Shown in pieces: positions 21,623 through 61,728 of a DNA stretch of 64,000 bases. The number at the start of each line of letters is the position of its first letter. Position 1 is the stretch's first letter. The translations under genes and the position numbers were made by a program. The notes beneath the pieces were generated by a model. That model was given only the letters and a program-made list of their open reading frames with translations. It was not told where the DNA came from and made no database searches. Origin of the DNA: Amoebophrya sp. A120. Its lineage: Eukaryota; Protista; Dinoflagellata. The stretch covers positions 802,004 to 866,003 of the forward strand of contig CAJINV010000012.1 in the NCBI GenBank assembly GCA_905178155.1. The letters run 5' to 3'.

Positions 21623-24600
21623 CTATTTCCGCAAGTAGAAGATGAGCATGCCGAACACGGTATGCAGTGCAAAAGTATCGCACTCGTATAAATTATGCAT
21701 TACAATAAATTTCCTCAGCATGAGAAATAAAATTTGTAATGTTGATTTACCTTAGGGAAAAGATTTGTAATGCATGATTGCAATACGAGTATCAGATACT
21801 TTTGCACAGGATACACGGAAAAGAACAGCGCCCAGCCGACGAGGAAAACCACCCAGCCGACGCCCGCGCGCATGTATGAGAGTGCACAACTCCACCCCCG
21901 CGCCCTCATTTGTAATGCAAAATACCAAATCCACACCTTGCTCGTAAGCACTGTTAGCATCATCATCATCATCATCATGTAGTGGACACCCGCACCCAGC
22001 GCCACAGGTCAAGGATCCCCTCCCCGGGGGGTGGGCGAGGAAGCACTTTCGGCGACCTCAACATACAAAAGCCGAGCGCTACCACGGCAAGTCGCCCCAA
22101 TAAAAATACCAACCAGTCGGGAGCTACCCACCACACCTGATCAGTACAGCCCGGCCAGCTAGCCGAGCGCGACAGCCCAACATACAGAACGATCCAGGAC
22201 CCGACCCATTTTACGCCTTAAGTTTCTGTTCTCACGGAAGAGACGACGTACCCCTTTGGGCTAAGGGGCGAGACTCTCCCTTAAGCCGCAACCCCACCCA
22301 GACAGGGGAGGCTGGACCATTTGTGCCTTACCTGCGGCACGGACGAAAAAGGCAAGTGCCGCGGACCGGAGATGTCAAACCATTGGCCAGTTGTTTGTCA
22401 CTGCTGACAAATTTTGGAACCTCAAATTATAGTATATAGTATGACAATCCGCATGCAGATTTGTCATGCGAAAGCCCCTTTTGTGCTGTTGCTTGCGTTG
22501 CTGTTCATGCAATTATACAAATGCGGGCGAGGGGGAGTTTGCACTCTCGTAGCATGCCGTCCGACTGCAGAATGGTGAACGGCCAGTAGCTATGGATTGC
22601 AAAAGTGTCTGGGTCTGGAAGATTGCAACTTGTAATGCTGTCTTTGGATTCCAAAAAAATCTGTATTGCATGACCTTATTTACCCCTCAACCACTATACC
22701 CCCTTTACAACCACTACCTCAGGTAGGATCTCGGGGGGGAAGGGTCAAGCCCTAACGGGGGTCGGACCCGAGTGAAACCGTTAGAGTGGCTGCATGTCCT
22801 GGTCGAAACCGGAATTCCAAAAGCACGGTATCGTTTCCAGCGGTAAACCAGGCAACACACGACGAACAGACAAAGACGAGGGACTTGGGCAGAGCAAAGG
22901 GATAGCTGGGGTCTCCTGCAGCTGAAAAATAACGTCGCGATGCGACTGGACTGGGGTCTCCAGCAGTCCACCAAAAAGCCCTAATCTGTATTGCATGACC
23001 AGCAACAGGACTCCAGTTTGTGTTACGCGGAAAGGGCATTTCTCATGCGGAGTAGGCATTAGGAAGCCCTCTAAAAATCTGCGTTGCTAGATTCTGCATT
23101 AGAGGTCTCAATCACCATACAAAATATACATGACAAGTCTGCATTTTTCCAGACCCAGACATTTTTACATTTGATAGTACCCGGCGTCATCGTGGACAAA
23201 ATTCTGCTCGTCAAAGTTGATCGCACGATCGCAGATTTTGCAGCGCATCACCGATTCCCCCTTATCGCACTTGGATTTCAAGTATGAGAGTGCACAAGAC
23301 CTCCCTCGTCTCCCCCTCGTTTATATTGCATGATGAACAGCAATACAACCGTCGGCAAGAATACAGGTTTTGCTGCATGACAAACTTGGACAGGAGTGTA
23401 GTGCTATTTGGGCTCCTGCCAAGACTTCTCATGCAAACAGTGCCAAGCGGCAAGGCGTAAATTAGGTTTTTTGCATGACAAATGAGGGGCAGAGGGGAAC
23501 AAGTTGTGCACTGACATATCAAGTTAAGCGGGACACCAACGCCCTTGTAGGATTCCGTTGCGTACTCGTACTCCGTGGCCGAGCACAGGTTCACGCGGGT
23601 TGCGTACCTAGTATAAGTGGGCGATTTAAACATATTCATTATTGCACTTTTTTTTTTTGAATGCGGGAGGGGATTTCGGCCGCTATGCACTTCAGATCTA
23701 ATTATTAGCGCCGGGTGCAACATGATAAGTAATTCCGTCAGACATTGTTCTGATGCACAAAAAGATTGTTCTGCAGCAAAGCATTCAAGTCCTGCCAGCA
23801 CGTAAGAAGTTTCATCAATCCGAATCCAGCACTTCTATTACCATGCACAATTCCGCTTCACGTCCACATTAGGGATGCTCTCACACAGCGCCTGGCAGTC
23901 CGGCGCATTGTGGTAGGTGAACTCGGCGCAGTCCGTCGTGCCCGGAGCTTATCCTGCGCAAAAGTATCGCACGGCACACGTATTGCAATCATGCATAAAT
24001 TTTTTTCTTGAGGTAAATCAGCATCACAAATTTCATTTCTCATGCTGAGAAAATAATTTGTAATGCATTTGTACGAGTACGATACTTTTGCAATGCATAG
24101 AGCTTCCTTCCTCGCAAAGACCTTAACAAAGGTCGCCGTGGCTCGGCCGAAATAGGTGGAGCCGGCGAAGTTTGCGGCTTCATGGTTCGAGACCTTTTGA
24201 TGTTTGGTACGAAGAACGTGGGAATTAGCAGCGGCTGTCAGTAGCTGCTTGTTATTGCAAAGACAGCTCAGTCATTTATTGGTCGAGCAATTGTTTCTTT
24301 TTGTTCCACAAGTAGAATGCTCCTAAATCTTTGCGAGTAGGACTACACTTCTACCTTCTCAGCTGCTTGCTTCTTGTCCTTAGCCGTCGCGACCGGTAAA
24401 GCTTTCGCAACATCCTCCGTCGAGGACACCCCACCAGCAGCTCCGGTGGACGATGACGGTTTCGGCGGCGCCACGGCACTGGCGCTTAGGGGAGCAAGTA
24501 CCGATGAAGATGGCGGTTTGATATTCTTGAAGTCCAACGGAGCTCCCGCCGTGCTCGGAGAGCGGTCCGTAGTAGAAGCAGATTGAGACGCAGATACTTC

Positions 24601-26509
24601 AATAATTTAAGCAGATTGCCCGGCGCCAGAGAAGCTGCGGCTGCCTTGGCGAGGGCAGGGGAGAGTGCGTCGCCGATCCATCGCACAAGGCGGCCGGCGG
24701 CTTGTAAGAAAACCGGGCGCCACTACTGCAGAGTTAACTCCATCCAACGAAGGTCGACCCCTACACCGCCAGGGGCAAAAAGTTGCCGCGTGACCATGAG
24801 TTTTGATTTTCCAGAAACAACACAACGAAAAAAGGTAGGGCGAAACGTGGCGCGCCTCAAACAAAGACGCAGCCCGTTGGTTGGCTTTGTCGTGGCGCCG
24901 GTGTCCCATGCATGCTCATGCCCTTAGTCTCTCGCGAGTCGCCACCGAGCTCCGGAGCGGAATCCCATGCAGCGGCGCCTGCACGACAGGTGCTACCCTC
25001 GGACAAAAGGCCCGTAACAACGCACGCACCACGCTACATGCGCCTTAAGGTAGGAGCGCAGCCCCACGGCGCCAGTGCGCGCGCGCTATGCCGCATAAGG
25101 AAGGAACCAGACAACCGTGGCGCCCACCTCCTCAGGAATGGCTGAGGAGGTGGGCGCTGTCGTTGCTCTTGCTCCACACTGGGAAAACAAGAAATCCTCG
25201 CCTCCGCGCGGAGGCGTGGCCCACGACTTGCTTCCGAGGCCAATGCTGGATGCAACAAAAAAAAATTCTTCGGCGCGCTGCGCGCGCCGTTCCGAAAATA
25301 AGAAATCGACCCCTCCGCGCGGAGGGGTCGATTTCTTATTTTCGGTTTCTTCGTCCGCCGCTGGCGGCCCAGAAAGAAACAGACCCCTCCGCGCGGAGGG
25401 GGCGGTTTGTTTGATAGCCGGACCACTACCTTTTACCCAGAAAACAAGGATAGTTGGCACTTTCGGAACTTCCGGGTCCTAAAGAAACCGCCCCCTCCGG
25501 GCGGAGGGGCCGGTTTCTTTGTGGGCCGCTAGCGACGCAAGAAGAGGCCGAGCTTTCCTGTCGAACGAAACACGACAGCTCCACTCAACCCTCCACGCGG
25601 AGGGCCTAACTTATTGGCTTTGCGAATTGTTTCCGCGACCTGCGCGCGGAACATTTGTTCGCTTTTCATGCTTTCGCGAAGTGGCGCCGCGTCTCGTGCA
25701 GTGGCTCCTCGCCGCGGCCGCCAGCTGTTTTTTTTTTTATTCCCGGCCACCCTATGAAACGCGCAACACCCCTGCGCCGAAACCTTTGGCGCACGCGAGT
25801 AAAAACGTCGCGGCGGGCTGCTTTGCTTCCGCGGGGCCGCGTGTGCCTCTACGAATGTGCCGCAAAGACTGAAAACGCGACGCCAAATCGTTCGTAAAAC
25901 AGGGCAAGGCAACGCAGGCGCACAAGGTGAGGCTGCATAGCGCAAAAATGAAGATGGAGCACCATCATGGTGAGGCTTAAGAATGCGCCTGCTCCAACAA
26001 AAATACTAGAAGCAGGTCGGAGGGCAACTGGGACAGCAAGACCGAATTTTGTTGGCTGGAGGGGCCGACCGCCCTTCTCAGTCGCCCTCTCTAATATCCC
26101 TATCGGCCCAAGCGAGTGCGTAACCCTCGCGCAAGCGGATTCAGCGGCAAGCTTCTCTAGCATGCAGCCAGGAAGTCATGGGGAGTGCCACCTGGACCTG
26201 CTACCTTGACGATCAACGCTTGACCTTCGTCCTCACAATGCCAAAATGATAAAAAGTGGCAACTTTTGGATCTGCTTAAATTTGCGAAGTATCTGCTACA
26301 ATTTCCTTCTGGTGAGTACTCTTCAACTCCAACGAAGCTCCCGCCGTGCTCGGAGAGCGGCCCGTGGCTGCAGTCTTCTTGACACTCGCACTCTGCTTCA
26401 GCTTTCCCGTGGCTGCCTTCAGAGCTTGGTGCGGAGCAATGGGAGCAACAGCAGAAGCCAGCGAGGGCAACAAGACGAGCGAGCAGGGTACTATTAAACG
26501 GCCGGGCAT
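21623..26509 (-). CDS. Uncharacterised protein with signal peptide, Cys-containing region and C-terminal TM helix
   Basis: MPGRLIVPCSLVLLPSLASA...; ends GMRAGVGWVVFLVGWALFFSVFGMLIFYLRK* after introner removal; interrupted by five introners and a 1.75-kb insert. Confidence 0.65.
21661..21813. mobile_element. Introner family B
   Basis: TSD CACGG. Confidence 0.95.
21875..22551. mobile_element. Introner family C with nested insertion
   Basis: TSD GCATG; family C ends; expanded to 677 bp. Confidence 0.9.
21958..22404 (-). mobile_element. Probable 5'-truncated non-LTR retroposon/SINE with (ATG)n tail
   Basis: Starts with (CAT)7 at a GCAT|GACAA site of the host introner; sequence unrelated to family C siblings. 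Confidence 0.55.
22591..23176. mobile_element. Introner family A with nested 307-bp insert (22676-22982)
   Basis: TSD GTAGC/GTACC; insert flanked by 18-bp duplication AATCTGTATTGCATGACC. Confidence 0.9.
23283..23518. mobile_element. Introner family C
   Basis: TSD TCAAG. Confidence 0.9.
23950..24099. mobile_element. Introner family B
   Basis: TSD GAGCT. Confidence 0.95.
24571..26319. mobile_element. 1.75-kb insert with near-terminal inverted repeats, flanked by 46-bp direct repeats, inside a CDS
   Basis: DR 24525-24570 / 26320-26365 (4 mismatches); IR GCAGATACTTC..AATTTAAGCAGAT at 24590 and reverse complement at 26270-26296. Confidence 0.75.
25292..25345. repeat. Perfect 54-bp palindrome centred on CCTCCGCGCGGAGG
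   Basis: CCGAAAATAAGAAATCGACCCCTCCGC|GCGGAGGGGTCGATTTCTTATTTTCGG; core recurs near 25201, 25385, 25493, 25590. Confidence 0.95.
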
Positions 26510-27433
26510 CTTGATCTTGAATGGCGTGGTGGTTAAACGGAAATCAAATCTGCAAGAACTTGGCAAAACTTCCGGGAAAGAGGATCTCAATCGCCCACGA
26601 TCTTCCTCTTCAATATTTCCGTAATATTTCCCACCGGGGCTACTTTCTGACCATCCGACTCCGAGCTTGATTTAGATTGTGAGACATTGGAACAAACACA
26701 CTTGCAGCTGTGGTTGTTCTTGGTCCGGATAGAAATCGAGATCTATTTCGCGGCTAATATGTCCAAAAAGTAGAAGATCACGATCATGCACGTCCTGTTT
26801 CTCTGAACACAAATCTTCCTAGCGCCCCCAGTTTAGGAGGTCCACTTCCCCACGAAATGGCAAAGAAAGTCCTTGGTTGTGTTTTAGGGGCGCGCTAATA
26901 TTGTAATCGCCAATCAGCAGCTGTATTAAAGACGAGCTGACGAAGATGTCTATGTCATCTTTTCGTATGACATGATGCACATTTAGCCACAAGAGCCATT
27001 TACCAAAAAAAACTTCGTGCAATCGAAACAAAACAAATTTTACAGTAAATGGCCTGCTTGCAGAGCATTTCTAACATGTGGAAAAAGCACGTGTGTACTT
27101 AAATCGGTTTGAAAACTTTATTTTGCAATCTTACAGAACTCACGACGACACCTGGCTGGCTTGAGTAAAATGTAATTTTTAACTTTATTTGATGAAAATT
27201 CTACAACCACCTGCGTCTCCTGTTGAAAAGACTGAACTCAGAGAATGAAATAAAAATTGAATAATGTACAACATCATGCAGAGTGCCAGTGCGGTTTTCT
27301 TGTGTCTATAGTTACAACTGCTAGAAGAGCTTTTCACTTTAAGTTTTTACTACAAGTACAGCAACGTCTTGGAGTAGCTGCGCGATAATGATTTTATATC
27401 TCCAAGAACACCGCACCGCTTCTCACGACCACC

Positions 27434-29901
27434 TTACATTGCCATGCTCTTCCTGGAAATCTCTCTCGCCGTATCGTTCATGCGATCGACCGCCTGGGGC
27501 ACGGCGTCCACCAATCCCAGCGGTGGCTCGAGGAACCGGGAAGTACTATTCACGACCACCTCACTCCCCGCAGTGGCGAAGCGCACGGTCCTGGGAGAGG
27601 ACTGCGGGGGCACAGCCGAATTATTTCCACCTCTCGGACTTTTATTGCCACTGCTGTTTCTCCTATTGCTTGCATTGCCCGCTGCCGATCTTGCTCTGTT
27701 GTCGCTAGAAGTACTGTTCATTACCGGCGCCAGGATGCTCCTGGGTGGCGAGAGCTGTCTTGGGCTACCCGCGGGGGCGTCGGATTTCGTGGATTTGGGC
27801 GGCTCGATGTAGGTGGTCAAACTGGGCACACGGGAGATCTTGTCCCGGCAAGTGGTAACCTGAATTGATTTATGAAGTGGAAACTCATTTTTGATCAACA
27901 CCCGTTTATTTCAAATTCAAAAAATCACTATAGCAAAAACTTCTGGTGTATTCAACAGCATGCACAAGGTGTACCTGGTCCGCCAGATTCCTGGACAGAT
28001 TCGACAATCTGAGCGACTCCCCAAAGTTCACCTGCGCGGTAGCCACGATTCGCCGGGTCTCTTCGTCCACGTTCCCGAAGTTTTTGTTCGCTTCCCACTC
28101 GAACAAGCTCGTCGGGGTTACGATTGGCAGCAGGAATTGGAATATGCCGTGCAAAAGTTAAAAACGCATCGAACTGGTTCTGGTTGTAGGAATTTTTGCA
28201 TCACAATTATTCTTGTTATTGTTTTTCAATGTGAAAAAACAATTTTACGCTTGTCAACATGCTGGATCAGGCAGAAAAATGTTGATGTTGTTGCATGGTT
28301 CAACATAATTAAAAAACATGGTTCCCACTACGAGCACGATAAGCACTGCAACTTTTGCATCGAGGATATGGAAGTCCCAAATGTGGCTCCCCCAGTTTTC
28401 CTCCAACAGATTCTATGAACTGCAAAACAAGTATCGTACTCGTATAAATGCATGACAAATTTCCTCAGCATGAGAAATGCAATTTGTAATGCAAATTTAC
28501 CTCAACAAAAGGATTTGTATTGCATGATTGCAATACGAGTACGATACGTTTGCACAGGATAGATTCTCTTTTCCGGTCACGATCAACGCGTCAGCGCCCG
28601 TTTTGCTCGGAGAGTTCTGTAGTTTCGAGCCAGCTCCACCGGCCCTCGGAGAGGAGCATATGCAATACAAATTTCCCGTACATGTACAAGATGCATTCCA
28701 AATTCCACCAATTTGAAGCGTAAAACTTGTCATGCTAGACTAGGATCGAAGCCACTTTTTGTCATCCAAAGACGTCATGTGTACGTCTACGTGTACGGGA
28801 AATATACTGTGGATAGAGCAGTACACTGGTTTACTGGTTCCCACCGGCGAGGTATCAAATGCAAAAATGTCTGGGTCTGGAAACTTGTGATGCTGGGTGG
28901 AGTATCATGAGGAGGCCACAAGTGCTACCTCAGCATGACAAGTCTCTAAGCTTCTAGGTGTTGCCTATTCTGCATGACAAACTGCGTTTCTGCATGACAG
29001 AAAAGTGGCACTCTGCGGTAACGTGCATGACAGATTTGAGAGTCATGCCAGACAAGCATGACAAACATGCACTCTTCCAGACCCAGACATTTTTACAGTT
29101 GATACGAGGCTACTGTGCGGATCGCGGCAGTATCCACTTCCCGATAAAAGTTGGGCGGGGGGGGCGAGGAGGTGAGAAGTGTTTTATTGTTTTTACTACC
29201 AGCTTATCAAAAGTAAAAATGTCTGGGTCTGGAAACTTGTGATGCTGGGTTTCGCTCATGATGAGGCTACAAATGCTGGCTCAGCATGACAAGTTTTTGA
29301 GCTCCTAGGTGTTGCCTGTTCTGCATGACAAACTGCGCTTCTGCATCACAGAAAAACGAAGCTCTTGGGTAACGTGCATGACAGATTTAAGAGTCATGCC
29401 AGACAAGCATGACAAACATGAATTCTTCCAGACCCAGACATTTTTACAGTTGATACAGCTGCACCTCCTCCGGTTGTTGTAGCTCCGACTCCGCGTGCGG
29501 AAGTTGTGGTCTCCGGGGAACTCGGCGCCGCGTTGTTTTGCTGTTCCTCGTATGCAGTGCAAAAGTACACAATTGCGTTTTATACATTTCAAATCTTTTT
29601 GTTAAGGCAAATCCGCATCACAGATGTACTATGTAATGCTAAGTCAGTCTCAATTCGTAATGCATTTTTACGAGTGCGATACTTTTGCAATTCATACCTC
29701 GATGGTTTTGGCCCTGCCCTTGTTCATCTTCGGAGTTGTGTCTGCGTTCTCGTCGGTCGTGTGATCCACCACAAGCGGAATTTTCTCCGCGGTAGCGTCA
29801 TCGAGATTGTTTGCTGGGGAGCCGCTCTTCTTATCGCCCGAAGCTGCAGCACTGCCACTCGGGGTGGCCGCACTGTCCTGCTTGCTGCCGCCGCAACCCA
29901 T
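27434..29901 (-). CDS. Uncharacterised protein with N-terminal myristoylation/palmitoylation motif
   Basis: MGCGGSKQ start; frame stays open across five consecutive introners when each plus one TSD is removed; 3' exons less certain. Confidence 0.7.
28414..28561. mobile_element. Introner family B
   Basis: TSD GATTC. Confidence 0.95.
28659..28815. mobile_element. Introner family I
   Basis: TSD GAGCA. Confidence 0.95.
28853..29104. mobile_element. Introner family A
   Basis: TSD CGAGG. Confidence 0.95.
29205..29455. mobile_element. Introner family A
   Basis: TSD CAGCT. Confidence 0.95.
29551..29696. mobile_element. Introner family B
   Basis: TSD CCTCG. Confidence 0.9.
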
Positions 29902-30753: not shown

Positions 30754-31706
30754 ACTGGATACCGCGTCGATTCATTCTGTTCTTGCTAGTGCGCACGACT
30801 TGCTCTACTCGACCTGCTCTTTCGACCTGCTCTTTGCTAGCTTCCGACATGTCTACAGAAATTTTCGCGCTGGTGTGGCCACACCGGGGTAGAAACTTCT
30901 GTAGGGCTGCTCAAAATTACTGCGCGGGGTAGCTAACCGTCGCAGGTAGGACGAGCGTCAAGAGCGACAGAATTTTGCTGATCGGGCAAAATTGTATCTA
31001 TCCGAACGGCTACGCCTACAAATTTCAATCGATCCCCATAAGCCGGAGCAAGGGGATAAGACTCAAGGAATTCGGCCACTGGGCCCCAGTCTCGGCCACT
31101 CTCCTTTACTTTCTTATCTTGCACGCTACTAGTACCTGGTCGATACCTCTCGCAAATTCTTAGCGAGGCAGGGAAGGTCGTCACAAAATTCGGTTTTCAT
31201 CCCGAATGCTTACACTCCCAACACAGAAATATCCCGACGGCAGTAGTTGCGCGGGAAACAGCGGAAACCGATTGCGATGCTCCCATCGCATTGAAGAGCG
31301 GGAATTTTATCTATCAGCAGAGGGGGCGGATGGTTTCACCATCAGCATCTTCAAGCTGAATATGTAGCCAGGCTCGACACCTTGGAGCAATCCAGGTCGC
31401 CTGATCCGGGCTGAGCCTTTTCGTGCCTTCTTTCAAAGCCTAGCACCAGCAGAGGCAACATCTTGCACAGCGGTGCTGATGTCCTTCACGCTGGGCGTGT
31501 TTGGTTCAACTTTTACAACAGATTCGAGACCGACAAATCTGGTTCGAAAACAGAGCGCGCTACTTCTGACACTTTTCTTGCGTCAGAATTCTTCATCAAT
31601 CTCAGAGCCTCAGCTGCGAGTCTGGTTGCTGCGCAATAACTGGAGACCGCGTCGATTCATTCTGTTCTTGCTAGTGCGCACGACTTGCTCTACTCGACCT
31701 GCTCTT
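30754..31706. repeat. 68-bp direct repeats flanking an 817-bp insert
   Basis: 30754-30821 and 31639-31706, one mismatch; short partial re-copy TCGACCTGCTCTT right after the first repeat. Confidence 0.9.
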
Positions 31707-32024
31707 CTTGTTCTTTTTTCACGCAAGGTCGAATTTGACTTGGAGGAACACTTGTTCTGGATAAATGGCAGGGCGCAAAATGGCAGGGCGCAGCCCAGAG
31801 TCAGGTCTCGAGACGATGAAGATAGTTGTATGCACAACATAATATCAGTGACTTTCTAGTAAGTACATCGGTTCAACAGCTGCAGCCTAGGCGTACGCGT
31901 TCCGGTGTACTAGTAACCGGACAAATAAGGAGCGCCACCTGCTGCTGTCCGAGTTCGTTCTTGCATCTGGGTAACTAGAACTACGTGTGTACCAATTATC
32001 TCGTGCTTCTATGATTACGGACGT

Positions 32025-33152
32025 GGTAGATTCAGTGAAAACTTCTCCTTCATCAGTTTTGTCCTAATCAAAACAGCCTTTGTATCACAAGAAAAAGCGT
32101 ACACGTACACGGTTTTGCCTTTTTCCGAACAAAAATTTTTTGTGTGCTCCCTCGAGGCGTTCACTTGTGTCAGTGAAAGCATTCGCTACGAAGTTCGCTA
32201 GATTGGGAGCCTGGCACAGCTGGCGCACCTAGAGCACACGGTCCGAAGGTCATAGCGAAGGTCCAGCAGAAAGGGGAAAGAAGCAACCGAGTCAGCTGCC
32301 CAACGCTCCTGGTCTCGTCTCAGGGCGGCGCAAAAAAGGCCGAGAAGGCCAGGAGCTGTCGTTCTAGCGCCTAGAGGCGGGCCGCCGGTGGCTCCTGCAA
32401 CCTGCGACCCAGGTTCTCCCTTCGCCGAGGATCAAAGCCACCCAACAAACCGCCGCCACCATCAAAACAGGTGACGGGCCTCCTTTTGGAGAGGTAAACG
32501 GGCCATGCCATGCAGTCTGGAGATGATGTACACGGTTTTTCTTGGGGTCAAGAAAATCCGCAGAAAAAGAGGCAAATTTATCTGAATTTTGAGTGTGAAA
32601 TCGCGCACCATCAAAAAACCCTGTACATCGCATCCAACCTGCGTGGTATGATGGATGTGCACGGTCTGCGAAGTGGTCGGGTCCGGAGACAGACGCTCTG
32701 AACCGTGTACATCGGCCATACCATGCAGTCTAGATGCGATGTACACGGTTTTTGTGGGCCCTTTTCGAATTTTGTCGCAAGTTTACCACTTTTGAAACCG
32801 TGTACATGGACCATAGCATGGTAGTTAGGTTCCATGTACACGGTTTTTGGCCAATCTGAAAAATTTGGCCTTGGAGGTATGCAAAAAATTGCGTTTTTCC
32901 GGACATCCGAAATTTGGAAACTTTCCCAGATCTCGGAACACAACACAGCCAGACGAACCTGCCGAGAAATCTGAAGCAGTTCGGCTCCCGCCCAAACAAT
33001 ATTCCGCAGCCCCCATCAATGTTTCCGACCCCAAACACAGCCTGGCGGGTGGGGGTGGAGTGTTCATGGCGGTGGGACACTGTCGGGCATTGGAGGTAGA
33101 TTCAGTGAAAACTTCTCCTTCATCAGTTTTGTCCTAATCAAAACAGCCTTTG
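32025..33152. repeat. 58-bp perfect direct repeats flanking a 1012-bp transposon-like insert
   Basis: GGTAGATTCAGTGAAAAC...AACAGCCTTTG at 32025-32082 and 33095-33152. Confidence 0.95.
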
Positions 33153-33218
33153 CTTCCATTTTGCCCAGCAGTCTGGTTGCATATATATATATAGTAATTC
33201 CTTCGGCCCCTAGTAAGG

Positions 33219-33861: not shown

Positions 33862-34516
33862 TACAAGGGTGAAAAACATACTCGCTTTCAAAATTCAAAT
33901 TTTTTTGAAGCCCCCTTGCAGCATCCGGCCCGACTGTCCTCATCCGCGTCACCCGGCTCAGTGGCCCCACAAGCGGCTCCGGATTCTCCGACCTATCAAT
34001 TCCTTTTTTTTGAGATGTAGTCTGATAGTGATGAATGAGAATGCGAGTGAAAGTATGTAGCTTGTCGCGGTGATAGCTAGTGTAAAGTAGATAGCATTTG
34101 AGACGTTTTGTGACAGATGTCGGCAGCAGGTAGACGCTCATCAGCGACAGGAGCCTCCCAGCAATGCCATCCGGTCTGGGCACCAGACTGGTGCCCAAAA
34201 TGCCGCTCAAGGCGATACACAGCTCCGGACCAGCAGCACTCCGGGCAATGGACTATGCAAAAAAACGTCTTCAAATGCGAGCGCAAATTTACACTACCTA
34301 TCACCGCGACAAGCTAGCCTGCTAGATAATAAGACTACTCAAGTGACATCATCAACATACTCCAGCAATTCAGGTAACGAAAAAAGGTCCCGCGACTCAC
34401 CTGCCCGACGCCTTCCAGTTCAACGAGGCCACCGACGGGGTCCTATCTGGACCCACCCTCAAGGGGGGCAGAAAAAAATTTGATTTTTGAAAGCGAATAC
34501 GTTTTTCATCGCTGTA
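33862..34516. mobile_element. Intergenic TA...TA MITE with nested MITE at 34058-34316
   Basis: Outer about 45-bp TIR, perfect TSD CGGGT; inner TIR TAGCTTGTCGCGGTGATAG.TAGTGTAAA. Confidence 0.9.
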
Positions 34517-40344: not shown

Positions 40345-43300
40345 TCAGTTGTTCCTTTTCTCGGCCAGCAACTGCATCTCCTGCCGGACGTACTTATCCT
40401 GAGCAAAAACGGCCACACCTCCCTAGCGCCAAGATGGGAAAACTGCTACACTTTGGCTGTCGCGCTCGCGCATAACAAGCTTGGGCTCGCAATAAGGCCC
40501 TCGTGTAGTTCACAAGCTAGCGCAGGAGCATCACAAATTCAAATTGAGCGCTTCATGCGGATATAAGCATGACAAATTCCATTTCCAAAACACCACTAAA
40601 AATGCTTTTCCTTGGGCTGCCGCTGCGCATGAAAAGCTATAGAATGTAGGACTAGGAGTAGTTTTATGGATGTTGCAGGAGGAGCTTCGCATGACAACAA
40701 CTATCGGGACGAGGTGGAGGTGGGGCCGCCCCCGTCGTTTCTACTGGGGATAGTACTCCCAAATTATCAAGGCCGCGGACACGTGCACATTCAGACTCCG
40801 AATGATTCCCCTATGAAGGCCTCAGGTTGGAAATCCTCAAAGCGGAAATAGTTTGCAATGCAAAAAACCACTCCTGTTGGAGCGCCACTTCTAGGCGGCG
40901 CATGACAAATTTCCCGAGCACTCAAAGCATGCCTGTCATGCTGGTTAACGCAAACGGGTGCCCTTCTCTCGTGCTAATCAGCACTCCACCAATCCTGAAC
41001 CCGTAGAAGGACAGTAATCGGCCTCCATTGCGTCCTCTGCAATACAGTCTTTTTTGCGTCGCATTTCATGCAACGCAAATTATTTCCACTTTGAGGATTT
41101 CCATTCTGAGGCTTTCGTATCCCCTCTGCGGAATCTCCACGCACTGGTCGCACATGTGGATCTATCAAATGCAAATATGTCTGGGTCTGGAAACCTGTAA
41201 TGCTGCATGGCCCTGAGTAACTGCGCCTGTCAGAGCAGTGTAGCGTGACAAATTGTAATTGTTCAGACGCTTTCTCATCGTCCTTAGTGCGCATTACAAT
41301 AAACTGCGCTTTTGCGTGACGAAATTGCAGCGCTTTTGTTGCTTTTATGCAACACAGATTTTTCTGGAATCCTGGACACACAATACAAGTTCCACTTTTC
41401 CAGACCCAGACATATTTGCAATGCATAGGATCAATTCCGCGGGCAGACCTTCCTTTTCCGCACCGAGAAGAAGGATGACGCCCTGCTGTTCATCTACCTG
41501 TGCAACTTGCTGATCACGAGAACGACCAGTTGACGGCTTTGTTCTGTTCTTGTCCCGGAGTTCTTTATTTTCGGGAAAAAACTTGAATTCCGAGAGGCAA
41601 ACGCTCGTGTGTGTTATGAGGGTGCACAACTACTCCCCCCTCATCACATTTGTATGGCATCAACCGCATTACAAACACCAGTACGGGTTGAGGACCCTGT
41701 GCATGACAAGGAGTTCATGCGCCGAGTGCAGTACTGTTTGGATTTCTGGAATTTGCCATGCACATCACGGCGCCACAAGGTAGCAACTGGACTTGGGTTT
41801 TTGCATGACAAATGAGGGGGAGGGGGAGTTGTGCACTGTCATATGGGTCTGCTCCACGCCGATGATTCGGTACTCTTTCAGCTCGGCATGTAGTTGGAGA
41901 AATTGCTTCAAATTTTCCGGCTTCACCTCCAGCAAATTGATCCACTTTTCCGCTGTCACGGACACCGACTGAAATCCGGGATCCTTGATGATGTCTTTGT
42001 TTCCGACCACCAGCGCTTCCGCGTTGAAAATCTCGCAGGTACGCGCCAGCCCGGCGAGGTTCGGCGTATGCAATACAAATTTCCCGTACATGAACAAGAT
42101 GCATCACAAATTTCACCACTTTGGAGTGTAACACTTGTCATGCCAAACTAGGATCGAAGCCCAATTTTGTCATGCAGAGACCGCATTTGTACGTGTACGG
42201 AAAATTTACTGTGGATACGGCGCCTTGTCGATCAACGAGGCGACTACGATCAGCTTCGACCGCTATCCAGAGGAAAAACCTCCCAGCCCCAGAGTCAACA
42301 AGATGGCGACTTTGCTACACAAATCAACAAGATTTGGCTGTTTCGCATGACAAGTTTGGACTCGTAGTGTAGGGCGGTTGGAGATGGAGGTAGTGCAGAC
42401 GCATGACAAATCGACTCTCTTATCCTGATCCCAGCATGATCACAAACCTCCAGATTGATAGCATTCGAAAATGGCTCTAAAGGGGCTGCGCACGAGAAAC
42501 ATGATGGGCTTGGGCATGCCACTTTGCATGACAAGTCTGGGGTGGGGGCGTTTTTACAAATGATAACCGCGTTTGTTTCTTCTTTGCGCCGGCCAGCTGC
42601 TGTGCGAAGAAGAGGTCCTCGATTTGGGACATGGAGGTTGCGGCTCCTGTGTCGTCACTTATGCAATACAAATTTTCCGTACATTGAGCTGGGCGCCCTC
42701 AGATGGCACCCCCGTCCCGAATTTCTCTCGATTTTTTAAGATTTTTTTTTCAAAAAAAAATTTTTGATGGGCAGTCGTCGCCGGGAGCCAACGTTCGACG
42801 GCCAGCCGCGAAGCTCCGCTGCACTATTTTATTAGACCTCTCTTGTTCTAGTACTGCTTTTTTTTGCAGCTTCTCCGCATTGCAAGCTGCTTCTTTCTTG
42901 TCTACTTCCAGCGATCTTTTTCGGTATCCTCTAGAAAGGCCGACGCTTCCTCACAAAAAGTGCTCACTTTTGATGGCCAAAAGTGAACTCCAAAAAAGTC
43001 ATCCTTTCCCATTTTTACCTCAAAAAAAAAGTCTCTCGATTTTCTGGAAGGTGAAACCGAAAAAGACCGGCAATAATTGAGAACATAATGGGGAGAGGAG
43101 ACTTTTTTCTAGACTTTTTTTTTGGGTCTGCAAGGTCGGAAGGCGAAATCGAGGAGGAAAAGCGAGAGACTTTTTTGGAAGCTCAAAAGTGATCATTTTT
43201 GGCTTCCAAAAGTGAGCACTTTTTGTGCGGAAAAGTTGACGCTTGCTTTGGTAAGTGTTTGATGAGTCCACCATACCACTTGGAATAGCATCGATGCGGC

Positions 43301-46300
43301 ATACCATGCAGCTTCGACTCAACAAAGGAGGCGGGAAGGCGCAGCCGCCTTAGAAACTCACCTGACGACGTGAGTCGCAAACTTTTTCCCAATGCAAAGT
43401 AAAACGAAAAGCCCCAAAATTTTTTAAAAAAAAAAATCTCAAAAAATTGGGAGAAATTTGGAAGACTTTTTTGATCTGAGGCGCCCAGCTCAACGTACAT
43501 GTACAAGATGCATCACAAACTTCACCAATTTGGACGAGTGTAACACTTATCATGCTAGACTAGGATCGGAGCCAAGTTTTGTCATGCAGAGACCGCATTT
43601 TTACGTCGTGTACGGGAAATTTACTGTGGATATCACTGTAGTTCAACGCATTCATGTTTCCGCCATTTTCTTGATCTCTCGCTGCGTGCTCCGTACTAGC
43701 TCCTGCAGCTGCAGTTCCCCCAGAAGTAGTACCGCCACCGGTAAACGGGTTAAACTTTCTCTGCAGCGCCACGTCGGGCAAAGATCCAGTGCCAGTAGTA
43801 GAAGTTGATGTTATTTGGTGCACCTTTGCCGCCTCCTGCACCTTGTCCTTCAACTGAGACAGCAACTGCTCGCCCTCATCCACCCAGATGTAGCCCATCT
43901 ATCCAGGAAAAAAACTGTGTAAGTGTAAGTTTCTTGGAGGAATAGCATCACAAGTTTGCTCTGCATGACACAGAAAACCTGTCATGCGTAGCTCGTACGT
44001 GAAAACACTCACGAAAATTGCCTCTGATGCATGTCCAGCATGACAAGTGTAACAGTTTTGCACTTTCTGCAACACAGAGTTACACTTACACAGTTTTTTT
44101 CTTGCATACCATCGGACCCACCTTCATAGACTCGTCCAGTTCCGTGTGTTTGTGCCAGAGAGACTGCATCTCTATGGATTGCAAAAGCATCGTACTCGTA
44201 TAAATGCATTACAAATTAGCCCAGCATTACAAATTAGATTTGTAATGCTGATTTGCCTTGAGAAAGAGATTTGTAATGCATAAATGCAATTGGAATTACT
44301 ACGAGTACGATACTTTTGCACAGGATAATCTCCTGGTCGATGCAACTTCGGATTTCCGACAGAAACATGTAGCTCGGGCGGTAGTCGTAGATCGCATCTT
44401 TGTTTTCGAAGACGAGCGCGATTTGGGACTGGAGCTTCGGGTTCCAGTGCTGCAAATTCTGCTCCAACCGCTTTCGCATTTTCACATTGTCTATCAAGTG
44501 CAAATATGTCTGGGTCTGGAAGAGTGCATGTTTGTCATGCTTGTCTGGCATGGCTCTTAAATCTGTCATGCACGTTACGCAAGAGCTCCATTTTTCTGTG
44601 ATGCAGGGACGCAGTTTGTCATGCAGAATAAGCAACACCTAGAAGCTCAGAAACTTGTCATGCTGAGCCAGCACTTGTGGCCTCATCATGAGACGCCACC
44701 CAGCATCACAAGTTTCCAGACCCAGACATTTTTGCATTTGATATGGTCCTTGTGCTCGGTCAGCATCCGGAGCAGCTGAGAGGTGTAGTGCCGGTTGTTT
44801 TGATGATGTTCATCCACGATGCCTGAAACACGTGGACCTGCTAAAGCAGGAGCAGCTCCTTGGTTCTCCTGTCGTGCTGGTGGCCCACCGTTATTTTGCA
44901 TCGTAAACAAGTCACCAGCACTGGTCGTTCCACCAAGCACCTCCCCGGTTTCCACACTGTCCACGTCAGAAATGTTAAATTGGTGTCCGCTCGCGCCGGC
45001 CATTGCAGCGTGCAACCTATAATACACCAGCTGTGCGGTCCCGCGGACCAATGCCACGTTGCTGGTCAAATACGGTAACAACAGGGAGTTCAGCAGCATA
45101 TCAAATGCAAAAGTGTCTGGGTCTGGAGGGTGGTAACTTGTGATGCTGTCTTTTGATTCCAAAAAAATCTGTATTGCATGAGCAGCAAAGGGAGTGCAAT
45201 TTTCGCTACGGGAAGAGGGCATTTGTCATGCGCAATAGGCATCCAGAAGCCCTTAAAAAAATCACTGATGCTAGGGCATGCATCACAGACATCACGGCTC
45301 ATGCAAAACTTGCATGACAAGTCTCAGAATTTTCCAGACCCAGACATTTTTGCATTTGATACAGCAAGCCTTTCGACAACAGCTCCGTGTTCTCCGCCCA
45401 GTAGCCCGCCACCAAAATCGCGGAGGCCAGCACCTTATGGATTGCAAAAGTTAAAGTGTCTGGGTCTGGAAGAGTCATGTTGCTTTTGCATGACACAGAA
45501 GGTCTGCCATGGAAGCTCTAGCATCACAGGTTTCGAGAAGCGCTTGCAATGCCGGATCCGCATGAAAAATCCCCCACTTTGGTGACAGAAAATGGGAACT
45601 GTTGCTGCCTATGCATTAGAGATTTTTCTGTGCTCTGAAATGCGCATCACAAGTTTGTATTCTCCAGAAACAGACATATTTGCAGTTCATACACCTGCGG
45701 CGTGCCCGTCCCCACCTCGTTCAAAATCCGGACTAATTTATGCAAGAAAAAAACTGCGTAAGTGTAAATCTGTGATGCAGAAAATGCCAAACAGTTACAC
45801 TTGTCATGCTCGACATGCATGACTGGCTCGCTTCCTATGTGTTTTCCCTTTATTGTATCTGCGCATAACAAGTTTGTCCTGTCATGTCAGACAAACTTGT
45901 GATGCTGTTTTTCCAAAAGACCTACATTACCACAGTTTTTTTCTTGGATATAATTCATTAGTGAAGTACTCCGACACGCGGCCCAAATCGCTGGGCGCGC
46001 CCGCGAACTTGAGGGATATTCGGTAGTCGTCTCGCACCTTCACGTTGTCGTCGCGTCGCTTCTGCTCTCGCTCCGCGAGGATACAGAGTGCGTACTCGAT
46101 GTAGGACCGGACGTCGGGCAGCTGGGGCAAGCCAAAGTGGTACATGAGTCTCGGCACGAGGCTGGCGAGGTATTTCGGCTGCACCACGTTGATCAGCACC
46201 ACAACTGCTTGCCACGCCCGTAGTTGCTCCCGGTGGTAGTCTATCCTCTGCAAAAGTATCGTGCTCGTAGTAATCGCAGTACTGCATTACAAATCTCAAT

Positions 46301-54883: not shown

Positions 54884-55962
54884 TTTTTTTTGCGCGAAGT
54901 TGTGCTAGAAGCAATTAGCAGGTAGGGGTACAGGTGGACAATCTAGCAATAGGAACAAACACTGCAAACGAAAAGAATGTACTTAACTATTAGCGATGCG
55001 TATGCGTACTAGTCGTGTTCGTGCCTGTGAAACTGCAACTGGCTCCGGCATAAAGTCGTTCGTACATGAAGTCGGTCGCTGCTGTCATGTCAAGTTCACA
55101 GGGAAAGCGAATGCTACGTCTAAGTTACTTGAGGTTAAGGCTAAGGATTAGGTTAAGACGGCGCTCACAAGCTGCATCGGTGTCGAGCTCTTTATCTTAA
55201 CCTTTCTTCAAGAACATGATGACGAGCTGATCATGAAGAACAGAAAGTGTAGATCTTGCCTCCACGACCGAAGATCCTGACTGCTCAGTCGCAAAGGCGT
55301 GAAGATCATCCGGAAAAATCTGCATCCGTTCTGGTCTTTGCGGTACAGGAAACTCACCAAACAGCTTCAGGCACACCTTCATCAGCTCTGTGGAATAGAG
55401 AAAGAGATCGAGGAGATCCAGGTCTAGTTCCGGATCTTCAAGACTATAGGATCTCATCGGCAAGAACTCGATCACTGGCTCTTAACCGTAAGCTTATCCT
55501 TACACTGCTGTGCTGTAACTTTGTGTTCTACTGGGCAGAATAAATCAGGCCCAGATCGTTTGTTTCCGCATGAAGATTTCGATGATCAGAGAACTTGAAG
55601 CAGAAGTAGCACCACGTTAAGATCGAGTTGCTGTTGCAGCGAAGAACAAAAAATGGACTACACACGCACACAGAAAAAGGGCTGCTGCCTCTTTAGCTTA
55701 TTCACATGAGGGAGACCCACTTTTCATCGTTCTCAATGATTGATACAAGAGCCACTGCATGTAAATTTTTGTACAAGTAGAGCCTGGCGCCGCCACGACC
55801 GGGGCTCTCGGAGGACGAAGTCTTTGTTGTTTAAACGTTCAACATCTTCGCGTTAACTGGTTCCTCAGCATTCGCATTCTCTTGGAAAGAACAAGTATAT
55901 CTATGATACTAGGGGGTGCATAAGGAGGAGTTTCAATTTCATTTTGTACAAAGAGAAAGAAA

Positions 55963-58100
55963 TCATGAAGCAGCTCCAGTCGAACCGTAATAAGGTTTTT
56001 CAACCCGATCCTCTACACTATCTTCATCCTTATTGTCATTGTCCCCAAGAACCCCAGCAACTTTTACATCAACATGTACACCGTCAGAATTGTCCCATCT
56101 CCCGAACAAATACAACGCCGCGCCGCTCAAACTAAACCCCAGCCCGAACATCTGGACGACTCTCAACTGCTTTTCCAACAGGTACAGACTCGTCCCAATC
56201 AGCAAGACCTTGTTTGCCGTCGCCTATCAAATGCAAATATGTCTGGGTCTGGAAGAGTGCATGTTTGTCATGCTTGTCTGGCGTGACTCTTAAATCTGTC
56301 ACGCACGTTACCCAAGAGCCCCGCTGTGCTGTCATGCAGAAACGCAGTTTGTCATGGAGAATAGGCAACACCTAGAAGCTCAAAAGCTTGTCATGCTGAG
56401 CCAGCACCTGTGGCCTCCTCATGATACGCCACCCAGCATCACAAGTTTCCAGACCCGGACATTTTTACAATTCATATCGCCTGGACGGAAGCGAAAAACG
56501 AGCCCGCGTGATGGATCAGCATCGTGTCGGTTAGAAACCACATTTATGCTGTGCAAAAGTATCGCACTCGTAGTAATCGCAGCCATGCATTACAAATCTC
56601 GATCCCATTCCCAAGGCAAACCGGCATGACAAACTCCATTTCTCATGCTGAGTAAATTTGTCATGCGATTTCTACCAGTACGATACTTTTGCAATGCATA
56701 ACATTGTGGTTGTGACAATTTTGATCAAGAAAGCGGTGAAAACCGGAAGCTGCGCAAATTTTTCGCCGATTATGTCCTGTAAGGGCTCATCCGAGGCGGA
56801 GGTAAATTGAATTTGCATGATCGCCGAGCCACTTTGAGTTTGTTGTAGTAGTGCAACTTCTCCAGATGTGGAAGTGGAAGTCGTTCCAGCTGCACTATTA
56901 TCCCCACCGCCAACACCCTCGTTCCTATGTCCACCGCCGCGCAAAACCTTCGTCCCAAACTCCTCGAAAGGTGCGGTCCCCTCGAACAGCAGTGACAAAA
57001 CCAACAAGCCGATCACGTTCAACGGACTCAACAGCCGGACAAGGAGAAAAGTCGTTTTCAGGTCCGCTTGTTCCTCCTTCCGGACCATTGCTTCTTCGGT
57101 GAAAAGCCGGACGGAAACCGCGAATATCACCGCGAAAACGGATAATGCTAGCCCGACCGCAGTGAAGGACATTTCTTCCGCCCCGTACCCGAACAGACAG
57201 CCGCCGACGGTGAGAGAGAGAGCCGCGATTGGAGCGGTTTTTGCGAGAACTTTCCCTTGGTAGAATTCCGCGAGGAGTAACTGCGGGATCACCTTTGTTA
57301 TCCTGTGAAAAACAGTATCGCACTCGTATTAAAACTAATCGCGACACTGCATATACAAATCAGATTTTCTACCTGCGGCTGGTCCAGTTCTAGCATCACA
57401 AAAGATTGCAAATGCGATTTCTGCTATGTAGTGCGTCGATGCTTTTACAACCGTGCATATCGGTCATTTGGATCATGGAGTGGAGAGAGGGGACGAGGAA
57501 TTTCAAAGCTCCGTTGTGCGTCGCCCCGGACCCGATGTTCAGGAAGCCGAGGGGCAGAATCTCTTTGTAGAAGTCGTAGTCTAATTCTTCCTCGTCCTTG
57601 TGCTGCTCGTCCCGAGCGGCCCCCGACGCTCTCTTGGTCTTGCTACGGTCTTGTTCACCAGCAGCGCTAGGATGAAGATCCTGCGCGTCGTGTTCATCTT
57701 CCGTACTGTGGTTCTCTGCATCACGCCCTGACTGCTCGTCTTTCCCGCCTTCATCATCCTCTACAGCTGTAACGCCATTCGGGTTATTTGACGGCGACCA
57801 AAACAACGCGACTAGAATCACCGCCAGGAAAACGACAAACGTTTGGTCGACGACGGTGAGAAAAACCGGGTAGGGGAAATCATATCTTGTGCAAAAAACC
57901 CGAAGGAGAAGGTGGTAAACGACGTAGCCGGTTGCGTTTGCGACGGATTCCGCGGCGATAGTAGCTACCGACGCACCGGAGGTAATGCGGCGTTCGAGGT
58001 GGTGGTTGGTCCTCGGCGTGATTAGTCCTGCTCTTGGATGAGGTTCAGGAGATTTTTGGTGCTCGGGATCTTCCACATCGATATGGTCGTCATCCTCCAT
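55963..58100 (-). CDS. Triose-phosphate/nucleotide-sugar transporter family (TPT/SLC35, DMT superfamily)
   Basis: YDFPYPVFLT, ILPLGFL...HNGALKFL, SFTAVGLALS, LLSPL, QMFGLGFSLSGAALY; many TM helices; three introners. Confidence 0.85.
56225..56476. mobile_element. Introner family A
   Basis: TSD TCGCC. Confidence 0.95.
56545..56700. mobile_element. Introner family B
   Basis: TSD ACATT. Confidence 0.95.
57299..57459. mobile_element. Introner family B (degenerate)
   Basis: TSD TTTGT/TCGGT. Confidence 0.75.
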
Positions 58101-59180
58101 TTTGTTCTTGGGTGTAAATAATATGAGTCGTGTGAAGCGATGATAATGATTCTTGTTCGAGCATAGTCAGAAAATGCTTGAGTTCTTCACAGCGACGATA
58201 ACGTCATGCGCCTCACTCAATGTTGCGAAGATGAAATTGAGGGCAAACTGCAACCCAAGATGACTATTGCATCTACCACTTCGATGGATTATTTGGCGGC
58301 CGAGGTTGAATGCGGTTGCTAATGCTATTGTATGTCGTAGCTTGGCTTTCCTAATTCTTCTTGTCGAAGTAGTCAAATCCGATCATCATAATGATAATTT
58401 GCCAGACGATTCAACGAATCTACTGCGAAAGACGACAGCGATTTTTTTCCCCAAGCGAAACGATATACGAAAGCGAAGCCACCAAAACCTAATGTGGCAC
58501 GACCAACACAACGACGAAAAAACTTCTCTCGCCCATCAACATCAAGAACTACCGCCCTCCAAGTGAGGGAGTGGCAGAGAACAGGCCTGTCGCTATGGCT
58601 TCTGCTTCAGCTTTCCTTGCTTCGGTTGCTGTGTTGTGATGACACTTTATCATGGTGTTGGTAGTTGTACCGCATCAATTTGATAAGCAGGAAGTCTTGA
58701 TCTTGAAGAACTGAGTATATTACCATCTATGTGTGTGATTGTTTGAAACATAATTTTGGCGAAACATAACGTATAGTCAAGTGAGTCGTTGAATTTCAAT
58801 TTCTCCTGTGGCGGTAAAAAATTCCTTGTACAGGTAGCGAATTAAGGCCCGCCAAGAAAAAATAATCACATGTAGTGCGCAGGAGCGATTTTCGACACAA
58901 TAAGAAGGCCAGGTCCTGATAGATAAACTAGACAGCTTGAGCCGCTCTTTTCCAAGAGGGAAACGTGGATGGAAAGAAGTACTTCTACTTTCTCAAAGTC
59001 CACACTGACACAGAAATTGGTTTCGCTCCTACTAGGTTCCGCCGGGAAAATTTGCCAGAGAATCATAGAAACTTCTGTCGCCAAAAATCTACCGCGCGAC
59101 AAAGCAACGAACTACAAGAACTCCTGTCCACCTCCACATGATGAAGCAGTTGCAAAAAGCAGGCCTCGAACTATGGCTTC

Positions 59181-61728
59181 CGTTGCCATTTTCGTTACTT
59201 CTGTTGCTGGGCGGTTGTGAAGATGACGCTTATTTTTTAGCGCGAAAGTACCCCTAACGAACAAATCGAAAACAAATTGCACCCATTTTCAAAAAAAATG
59301 AATTCAAAAAAGATGGTCGGGATCCTCCATTGTTCCATACAAGCAGCAGCGTTCCAGGCGGTTCACATGGTTTTCTCAGATAGAATAGGTTTGGTCTCAA
59401 TTTTGCATAGCATTCGCCGAAACCGACGGTGGACATGTTTTTTCACAGCGACCGATATTGGAAACGTTAGAAGATTTGATCAAGATTTACCACAGCATCG
59501 GAATTTGGTTACTTCGCAGTGTTTTCCCTATCGCTACGAGAACTTGCAGGACTTAGAAAGCTGAAACGATTAGCGATGGCACCGAAGGGCTTCATGGCCC
59601 GGCTGAAGGCCGGGGAGAAACTCAGCGCAGCAGATTGGGCGACGCCACCACGCGGGGGGCATTCGGATTCAGCTCCAAAGGAAGGTCGCACCCTGCCGGC
59701 TAGGCAGTTTGATGTCCCGGACCTCGACACGAAAGTTGCATGTGTGGGCCAGAAGAGTGGAGAGGAGGAGAACCGGAGCAACTCCGTCGACGGCTTCTTC
59801 AAGCACCAGCCCGCGCCGGATAGTATGTTGATGGAAATTGTAGTCGCGCCAGCATTTGTGTTGCGAGGACAGCGTGATTGATGTACGTTCTCAATCACAT
59901 CCTGCAACACAAATGCCGTCGCGCCTACGCATTTTCATCTTCATCTCGAAGTGGCACGCTCGGGCTTATTCGAAGATCGTCTTCCTCATCATGCAGTTCT
60001 ACAAGGCGGCCATGGTTAAGCTGTGCAAGTCATTTACGCCCACCCACAAGCTAATTCGTATCGAAGCGGACGCAACACCGGTCGGGCATCGGGTACAACA
60101 GAGCTACGGGCAGACGATCGACCGCAGTGCCAAGGCGTTTTTAACCATCTGTGACGTCAGCTGGCTGCTTTCGGATGTTGAACCAGAAAAAGCCGACAGC
60201 GCAACTTGGATCACCTTTAATACGCCGTCGGAGGTGCGGCTGATTCAGAAGCAACACTACGACGACCAAACGGAGACAGATATGGTTTTCGATTTGTTAG
60301 CCTCCGTCCCGGGGCTCAAGGAGGCGGCCACCGGCGCGACCGGTGTGTTGGAAGTGAGTATCGTGGTGGACGCGGCGAAGTCGAACGTGAGCGCCCTGCA
60401 CCTCTTCTGCCAGTGGGTGCACGATTTGAATCCGCAGGTCGTCTGCGTCGCCCGGTTTTGTAGTCTACATGCCGCCAGCCACTCGATGCAAGACGCCTGC
60501 AGCCTCGTTCTTTGCGACCTTCTCGGGAAAAACGTGAAGGCTTTGGAAAAGAGAATTTTTTTGGTCACCCGCCTCTACTCCGCACAGACCGCAACTATCC
60601 AGGACAACACACAAAAGATGATCGACCGGGGGCTGGTGACGGTGGAAGACGCTACAACAGAAGGGGATCCGCAGCGATCTGCTTTCCGCGAGTATTGCCA
60701 AATGATGGGGCTGGACAGCAAGCGGGTCGGGGATGACGTTGCCATTTTCGTTACTTCTGTTGCTGGGCGGTTGTGATGACGCTTATTTTATGATCTAGTC
60801 AACATCTTCTCCGACGGATAGATCATCCTATGGATGATCATCGTTGGATGTGCGCTCCGGGAGTCAGGAGGTGCAGGCGCCCGCGACCAAGCATGTGGAG
60901 AGCCTACCCCACCGGCGGAGACGCAACGCATCGACGCGACCCAAAGAACCCTACGGCACCAGCTGGAGATGAATTTGGGTACCGAACAGCCGCCCCACAC
61001 GCAAGAGTGCGTGCGACGACACCGACTGAGATGCCAAAGACTGTCACACAGCATCCCAACAAGGCTCCAAAAGGGCGAAACAAAGCGCCTTCGCCCTGGC
61101 CCTTAGCAAAATCCTTGTCAACTACCGAAACCACAAGAGCAGCTAGTGGCAGAAGCGCTGCCCAAGAATCAGCGTAAGAACGTTTAATATAGGAAATAAC
61201 TCCCCGGAAGCTCCGGCTTCACTTCGGATACGTAGTGCGCTTGACCACTCGCACACTGATGAAAGAGGTCTCAACCCTGACAACTCGGCCGGGATGCGGC
61301 CGGGGAAATGCTGGAAAGTCATCGAGCAACAAGAAGTACTCAGATCAAGAGCCCACGGGGATGAACGCGCCCCCAGGTCAAAGACCTGCATACCAAACAA
61401 CTATCCAGGAAGGAACCTTCCAAAGCACAAGAGTAGACCTCGCGGCGGTGGCCACAACGCCCGCGCAAGCTGTGTGTCTCAAACGGAAATAATAACTTCG
61501 GCGCGGGATCCTTTCCGAAGACACTGCGTGCAAAGAAAACTCGGAGCCACCCGGCACCATGACACAGGGAAAGAGAGTCCGGAGCCCATGAAAAGATTGG
61601 AGCCGTCATCTGCGACACCCTTCCGGAGATGCGCGCGAACTCACTAAGACTGCCTCTGGAGCAGTAAGCCACCGTTTCCATTTTCGTTACTTCTGTTGCT
61701 GGGCGGTTGTGATGACGCTTATTTTTTT
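59181..61728 (+). repeat. Three direct repeats of about 53 bp separated by 1.5-kb and 0.88-kb unique inserts
   Basis: CGTTGCCATTTTCGTTACTTCTGTTGCTGGGCGGTTGTGATGACGCTTATTTT at 59181, 60737 and 61673. Confidence 0.95.
59576..60776 (+). pseudogene. Truncated DDE transposase of the hAT-like (CxxH) type
   Basis: IRIEADAT (first D), SIVVDAAKSNVSA (hAT-like tDnasN..A), RFCSLHAASHS (CxxH); frame change near 59870; cut at the repeat at 60737 before any catalytic E. Confidence 0.65.

Follow-up and report, generated by a model that had tools for sequence, protein, structure and literature searches.

Recurrent repeat-derived inserts between long direct repeats in Amoebophrya sp. A120, best read as long target duplications by a retro-type machine

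Long target duplications around inserted DNA are on record for systems beyond the CRE/SLACS-type retroelements, namely R9 and Dualen (PMC9977147) and the bacterial IS1549 and IS1634 (PMC2266710). R9 has a duplication of 126 bp and Dualen-4b_cRei has duplications of >50 bp at over half of its insertions, with a median of 900 bp; a model for the Dualen duplications has been suggested at most (PMC9977147), and for those of IS1549/IS1634 no model exists (PMC2266710). An "insertion with long target duplication" of genes has also been described in bacteria (PMC2853133). Target-primed reverse transcription (TPRT) is recognised by microhomology at the priming site, a 3' end that is fixed, a 5' end that is truncated and a duplication of variable length, which for L1 can reach several hundred nucleotides (PMC1291365), and in primates pieces of DNA transposons have been moved by TPRT as retro-DNAs (bioRxiv 10.1101/2020.03.19.999144). 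Here we describe six inserts bracketed by direct repeats at five loci in a 64,000-nucleotide stretch of the dinoflagellate Amoebophrya sp. A120 (contig CAJINV010000012.1, positions 802,004 to 866,003; hereafter the window). The arrangement is genuine and recurs within the window, and is best read as long target duplications made by a retro-type machine, the enzyme of which is not among the sequences found. Non-LTR (long terminal repeat) elements are on record for Amoebophrya, and we found no report of a long-duplication footprint in dinoflagellates in the largely open-access literature, a search that had the supplement of PMC7789003 outside it.

An earlier note on this DNA had pointed to five loci with unusually long direct repeats, and all five are present at the positions it gave. 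The two copies are identical at locus 1 (18/18; 22658..22675 and 22983..23000) and at locus 4 (58/58; 32025..32082 and 33095..33152), while those of locus 3 differ at a single position (67/68; 30754..30821 and 31639..31706) and the 46-bp copies of locus 2 have four mismatches (42/46; 24525..24570 and 26320..26365). Locus 5 has three copies of 53–58 bp (59181..59238, 60737..60789, and 61672..61727), the first with a 3-nt insertion and the third with one substitution. Among pairs 100–5000 bp apart in order-3 Markov windows (n = 20), a score of ≥25 was reached in none of the 20 and scores of ≥18 averaged 0.05. This null does not cover the 18-mer of locus 1, which sits in a dispersed introner family, and the evidence for that locus is therefore a sister introner copy.

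Judged from single-copy analogues of the empty site, the repeats at three of the five loci (1, 2, and 5) are duplicated target. The terminal inverted repeat (TIR) introner interrupted at locus 1 (22591..23176) has a sister at 45099–45361 with one 18-mer and an exact 325-bp gap relative to it. For locus 5 there is a diverged single-copy paralogue of the target at approximately 58595..58710, which agrees with the flank downstream of copy 3 at 39/45 positions and with the upstream flank of copy 1 at 28/39, compared with 24/37 and 22/37 for the other copies. At locus 2, in silico removal of the insert and one repeat copy gives a single open frame of ~120 codons. The single-copy empty sites that the earlier note asked for thus have analogues at these three loci, with duplications of 18, 46, and 47–53 bp; the 58 bp of locus 4 and the 68 bp of locus 3 fall outside the comparison. 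As the repeats are target-derived, LTR- or pseudo-LTR-type repeats are ruled out at loci 1, 2, and 5, and with them the pseudo-LTRs of Penelope-like elements. An Rfam search of the window and of L001, an independent copy of one insert family described below, returned nothing over the gathering score and hence no hammerhead ribozyme of the Penelope-like kind, although there were two loose matches to the core motif.

The six inserts appear unrelated in sequence to one another, in agreement with the earlier note. Local alignment of insert against insert on both strands gave low scores of 20–63 (given without a null), and the p value of ~0.01 obtained for one of 21 pairs of 120-nt ends was treated as chance. 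That note's suggestion that the inserts are foreign DNA did not hold, as all six have further copies in the same genome. Compared with a depth of 22–35 on unique contigs, each has raised depth or other letters in X1, one of the short-read runs that supply our contig evidence and possibly the window's own sample; contig depth is not a copy number, so that raised depth is read only as the presence of further copies.

Ordinary transposition in this genome leaves a different footprint. About 22% of the window recurs elsewhere in the window, mainly as TIR elements of 110–320 bp which break up minus-strand genes, such as that for histone deacetylase. These small elements end in TAT-N7-AAA, the motif given for A120 introners (PMC7789003), which occurs 63 times in the window versus a mean of 17 after shuffling. 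The flanking repeats of 32 such elements measure 5–6 bp in 27 cases and 3–4 bp in five, and two larger TIR elements with TA termini (6522–7333, and 33862–34516 with a nested element at 34058–34316) likewise have 5-bp duplications. Ordinary transposition here is therefore not the source of the long repeats, the footprint being, as had been proposed, unlike short transposase duplications, and a host-wide tendency to long duplications is ruled out by the same introners. Published values are similarly short: direct repeats in Amoebophrya are 3–5 nt (PMC7789003), and 57 of the 58 A120 family rows examined in Dataset S2 of PMC12130899 give 2–11 bp or a blank, although the automated detection behind that dataset may not search far enough for long duplications.

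Retro-type marks are firmest in insert 5b (60784..61669, minus strand), which derives from a non-coding element at least 1977 bp long and is truncated at its 5' end. Other copies of 5b start at 60784–60785, with differing flanks in three of four runs; beyond 61669 they go on with one identical sequence in all four runs. Depth in X1 is highest at the fixed end and declines with distance from it (396, 185, then 95). L001 is an independent insertion of this family (97.7% identity over 887 nt) that has the same 3' end in a different flank and extends 1090 nt further on the 5' side. At its fixed 3' end, 5b shares 6 nt with the target, which is T-rich at that end. A search with a 5b motif gave one locus in metagenome contigs and none in viral contigs, and L001 had no protein or RNA family match (nine frames, Pfam; Rfam). 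L001 carries an internal 40-bp inverted repeat of the 5b element (325–361 and 517–555), and a loose end at 60998 in X1 and X7 resembles this repeat, which implies a deleted or inverted derivative.

Insert 1 (22676..22982, 307 bp, minus strand) has a depth of 116 at 22829 in X1 versus 22–30 on unique contigs, and one contig (X4, record 18) extends 922 letters on its 5' side, unlike the window. Insert 1 is therefore likely, on this one contig, to be the 3' piece of a longer repeat, 5'-truncated with a fixed 3' end; evidence for a fixed 3' end covers 5b and insert 1, not inserts 2, 3, 4, and 5a. Inserts 1 and 5b also resemble each other in architecture, each having a triloop hairpin (22714–22726 and 60821–60839, respectively) with a stem that ends 38 nt before an AATAA end. 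Among 20000 stretches drawn at random from the window, such an arrangement occurred in 0.5% and 0.1%; the likeness concerns two cases and was spotted post hoc. The final A of the 5b AATAA also belongs to the target, and L001 lacks it. Short A-rich AATA(A) ends are present on inserts 1, 3, and 5b and on neither 2 nor 4, and the junction opposite the clean one is untidy at inserts 3, 5b, and 2.

Several of the inserts had been suspected to be transposon pieces, which is supported by the TIRs of insert 2 and, as a weak lead, by an open reading frame (ORF) in insert 5a (59239..60736, 1498 bp). This truncated DDE-transposase-like ORF (59856–60776, plus strand) is cut off at one end; its atlas feature matches were to TNP-like RNase H and DUF659 clusters at 0.78–0.88, all <0.9, and are a lead only. 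It had no Pfam match and no homologue in protein searches. The D and CxxH motifs picked out in it by eye may be those of a hAT transposase. Another copy of 5a has the same end at 59236, where three T are common to the target, and a 110-bp hairpin lies within the insert at 59830–59939. Inserts 5a and 5b share the same two breakpoints to within a few bases, which suggests that one machine made both, whether by inserting twice at a preferred site or by a single event that used two templates. CRE/SLACS-type elements insert at a fixed site in spliced-leader genes. Here the locus 5 site reads as a paralogous peptide, and the other four targets bear no relation to one another, being one introner, one exon, and two sites that look intergenic. 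A similar short minus-strand peptide runs across the locus 5 target in two tandem paralogous units (58595–59062 and 59130–62418), and the start of the locus 5 repeat (59180–59193) may resemble the 5' portion of the spliced leader of dinoflagellates.

Insert 2 (24571..26319, 1749 bp), which has a repeated internal palindromic motif, was the only one of seven inserts positive in a TIR test. Its imperfect 43-bp TIRs (24574–24616 and 26270–26310) scored 50 compared with a highest score of 34 in 300 shuffles, and one end of the insert is scrambled. Its 46-bp duplication, against 5–6 bp in 27/32 introners, departs from the short fixed length left by DDE transposons. Depth in X1 is 137–178 with many other letters. 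In X4, a run that we guess to be RNA-like, depth is 199 and 229 on the flanks of locus 2 and 0–23 inside the insert, and a 1267-nt contig (X4, record 19) has a window match that starts exactly at 26320 with no other letters. Insert 2 is thus probably removed from RNA as a GT..GA intron; the joint is not among the matches listed, so we infer it from the depth and the contig start. The putative intron, on the minus strand, would begin at a GT borne by the element, and its last 46 nt (24525..24570) would duplicate the exon, the copy at 26320..26365 being the exonic one presumed to be retained in the transcript. Alternatively, the X4 sample may hold an insert-free allele. Non-canonical splice sites have been published for A120 and non-canonical intron ends are the majority there (PMC7789003, PMC12130899). 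A protein search with the locus 2 exon found no homologue. Of 14 supplementary files of PMC12130899 searched for an insert 2 motif, 13 lacked it; long cells are shortened in these files. The raw RNA run X9 matched the window only at an introner end and has no bearing either way.

Insert 3 (30822..31638, 817 bp, inferred to be on the plus strand) opens with 13 nt copied again from where the duplication ends, and itself ends in AATA plus one A common to the repeat; its depth is 52 in X1 (record 6). One X3 contig (29697–31268) passes from the neighbouring gene into insert 3. The insert may lie within a 5' untranslated region, although contigs cannot reveal a start. Insert 4 (32083..33094, 1012 bp), with a depth of 150–268 in X1, is repeated elsewhere, has an internal motif in both orientations and lacks TIRs.

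We put at roughly even the chances that the whole class represents long target duplications from one non-LTR retrotransposon machine with widely spaced nicks. This reading rests on the marks of TPRT listed at the outset. The machine would nick the two DNA strands 18–68 bases apart and copy RNA into the gap: the 3'-OH of the first nick would prime reverse transcription at the A-rich end of the RNA, reverse transcription would halt early to leave a 5' truncation, and filling in of the distant second nick would leave two copies of the stretch between the nicks. In this scheme inserts 1 and 5b would act as non-autonomous partners, with their common 3' hairpin and AATAA end as the feature recognised. 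For inserts 2, 4, and 5a it supposes transcripts of DNA-transposon type taken up in trans, much as in retro-DNAs, and this is the weakest step. That a single machine nicking 18–68 bp apart routinely moves both unrelated non-coding families, through a common hairpin-AATAA 3' signal, and whole DNA-transposon transcripts, creating introns the last 46 bases of which copy the exon, is a more doubtful proposal, which we make tentatively.

A number of observations weigh against the retro-type reading. Pfam searches of the insert ORFs and of nine L001 frames found neither a reverse transcriptase nor an endonuclease, and a poly(A) tail is present on none of the inserts. The hairpin-AATAA end is missing from inserts 2, 4, and 5a, and insert 3 has its AATAA without such a hairpin. 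Insert 2 retains both TIRs, which is better suited to DNA transposition. Loci 3 and 4 lie outside the empty-site evidence, and the 5' side of L001 leaves its contig, so that a duplication of the 5b family is known from one locus. The X4 contig that extends insert 1 also holds its introner flank, with 11 other letters, and could therefore reflect a homology-driven event or be chimeric. An approximately 450-bp repeated insert with a (CAT)n tail, inside an introner at 21960–22406, is likely another retro-like family and has no long duplication; the long footprint is thus not common to all retro-like inserts here. Helitrons, which are rolling-circle elements, also typically have one fixed end and a hairpin just inside it. 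The same combination is typical of Replitrons (PMC10288648).

A rolling-circle (HUH) family of the Helitron or Replitron type, with one fixed hairpin end, one variable end and fill-in that leaves variable duplications, would accommodate the fixed end and subterminal hairpin, and variable-length duplications are known for Replitron-1 and some Chlamydomonas Helitrons (PMC10288648). However, other Replitron families lack duplications (PMC10288648), the junctions by eye show neither an RG target nor a common terminal direct-repeat motif, and no Rep gene was found in the available element sequence; we regard this origin as quite improbable. The earlier note had preferred a distinct route of DNA capture, either by the filling of staggered nicks or by one-ended transposition. 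The former survives as our second-best explanation, albeit an unlikely one. In it, the host would repair widely staggered nicks by letting a 3' end invade or anneal to a repeated donor (DNA or RNA), copy 0.3–1.8 kb and rejoin, with the sequence between the nicks doubled and no enzyme of the element needed. Such repair would suit the heterogeneity of the inserts, the 3–6 nt of microhomology at one junction of 5a and of 5b, and the locally templated 13-nt filler at locus 3, and locus 1 could have had the sequence on X4 record 18 as its homologous donor. Yet all six donors are repeats, and random capture predicts neither the exact common end of 5b across differing flanks nor its one-sided depth gradient; 5b firmly, and insert 1 on its one contig, show the marks of retro-insertion. 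One-ended transposition is plausible for inserts 2 and 5a, but 5b and 1 fit retro-insertion. The two could be combined in a mixed class, in which 1, 5b, and perhaps 3 are retro-insertions and 2, 4, and 5a are products of aberrant or one-ended DDE transposition or of a long-stagger transposase like those of IS1549/IS1634, whose repeats span 8–514 bp (PMC2266710). The TIRs and one scrambled end of insert 2 and the truncated transposase-like ORF of 5a would agree with this, whereas the 5–6 bp duplications of the window's other TIR elements and the nearly identical breakpoints of 5a and 5b would not, and we judge a mixed class improbable, placing it after host repair and ahead of the rolling circle.

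That the loci are assembly or haplotype-merge artefacts seems to us very remote. The evidence does come from short reads, and for several junctions the matches listed include no contig that bridges them, namely the right junctions of loci 1, 3, and 4 and both junctions of 5b; at the right junction of locus 2 there are 30 letters on the insert side versus the 31 needed by the tool. One low-depth X7 contig also jumps back from 60744 to 59190. Against this, substitutions and an indel separate the copies at three of the five loci, depth is even on the unique flanking contigs (22–35), and contigs from two studies bridge junctions. The left junctions of loci 2 (X1, record 2), 3 (X3, record 13), and 4 (X1, record 7; X3, record 14) are each crossed, a contig of X4 (record 19) covers the entire first copy of locus 5, and one of X3 (record 13) runs from insert 5a into the second copy.

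Other close repeat pairs in the window were rejected as further cases. The pair 62004/62297 (28 bp) was a sixth candidate; the upstream flank of the paralogue resembles its second copy alone and the interval is at single-copy depth, the sequence at 62004 being an extra displaced 28-bp copy in the paralogous unit. The pair 42067/42660 is an introner interrupted by another TIR element, and a third larger TIR element (42679–43498, with a nested element at 42947–43232) splits an introner. The remaining pairs are introner family members, internal repeats or tandem paralogue units. Elsewhere the window holds a near-perfect palindrome of 386 bp (16915–17300), pieces of a histone deacetylase gene (17654–20265), and an ABCA-like C-terminal domain (62551–63066), after which 63087–63259 is skipped by runs X3 and X4.

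Six inserts in 64 kb suggest that there are many in the genome if this density holds, and in that case they would form a natural data set on how the position of the second-strand nick sets the length of the duplication. For intron gain, a long duplication together with a tolerant spliceosome would let a 1.7-kb insertion leave the protein intact and, if true, this would be a route apart from the 5-bp-duplication introners of this lineage. Pipelines restricted to short duplications would overlook such inserts.

The ordinary A120 introners are among the closest known systems. The window's small elements share their TAT-N7-AAA termini and non-canonical splice sites, and insert 2, like them, is likely removed together with one copy of its duplication; it differs in that this copy measures 46 bp, compared with published direct repeats of 3–5 nt. 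The inserts recall Replitron-1 (PMC10288648) in having one precise end, one fuzzy end and variable duplications, but neither an RG target nor a terminal direct repeat nor a Rep gene was seen. With IS1549/IS1634 and the bacterial long-duplication insertions they share long variable target repeats around DNA inserts; IS1549/IS1634, however, are bacterial and inserted as complete two-ended copies, whereas most inserts here are one-ended fragments. Like the primate retro-DNAs, they include fragments of DNA transposons with longer, retro-type duplications and mostly without poly(A), although the non-LTR duplications in primates are mostly 8–15 bp and the fragments lack TIRs, both of which insert 2 retains. 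They differ from Dualen and R9 in that no reverse transcriptase or endonuclease was found, the available element sequence is non-coding, several unrelated families are involved and the duplications span 18–68 bp. With Dualen and R9 they have in common that variable, target-derived repeats of at least tens of base pairs flank inserts which are truncated at the 5' end and fixed at the 3' end.

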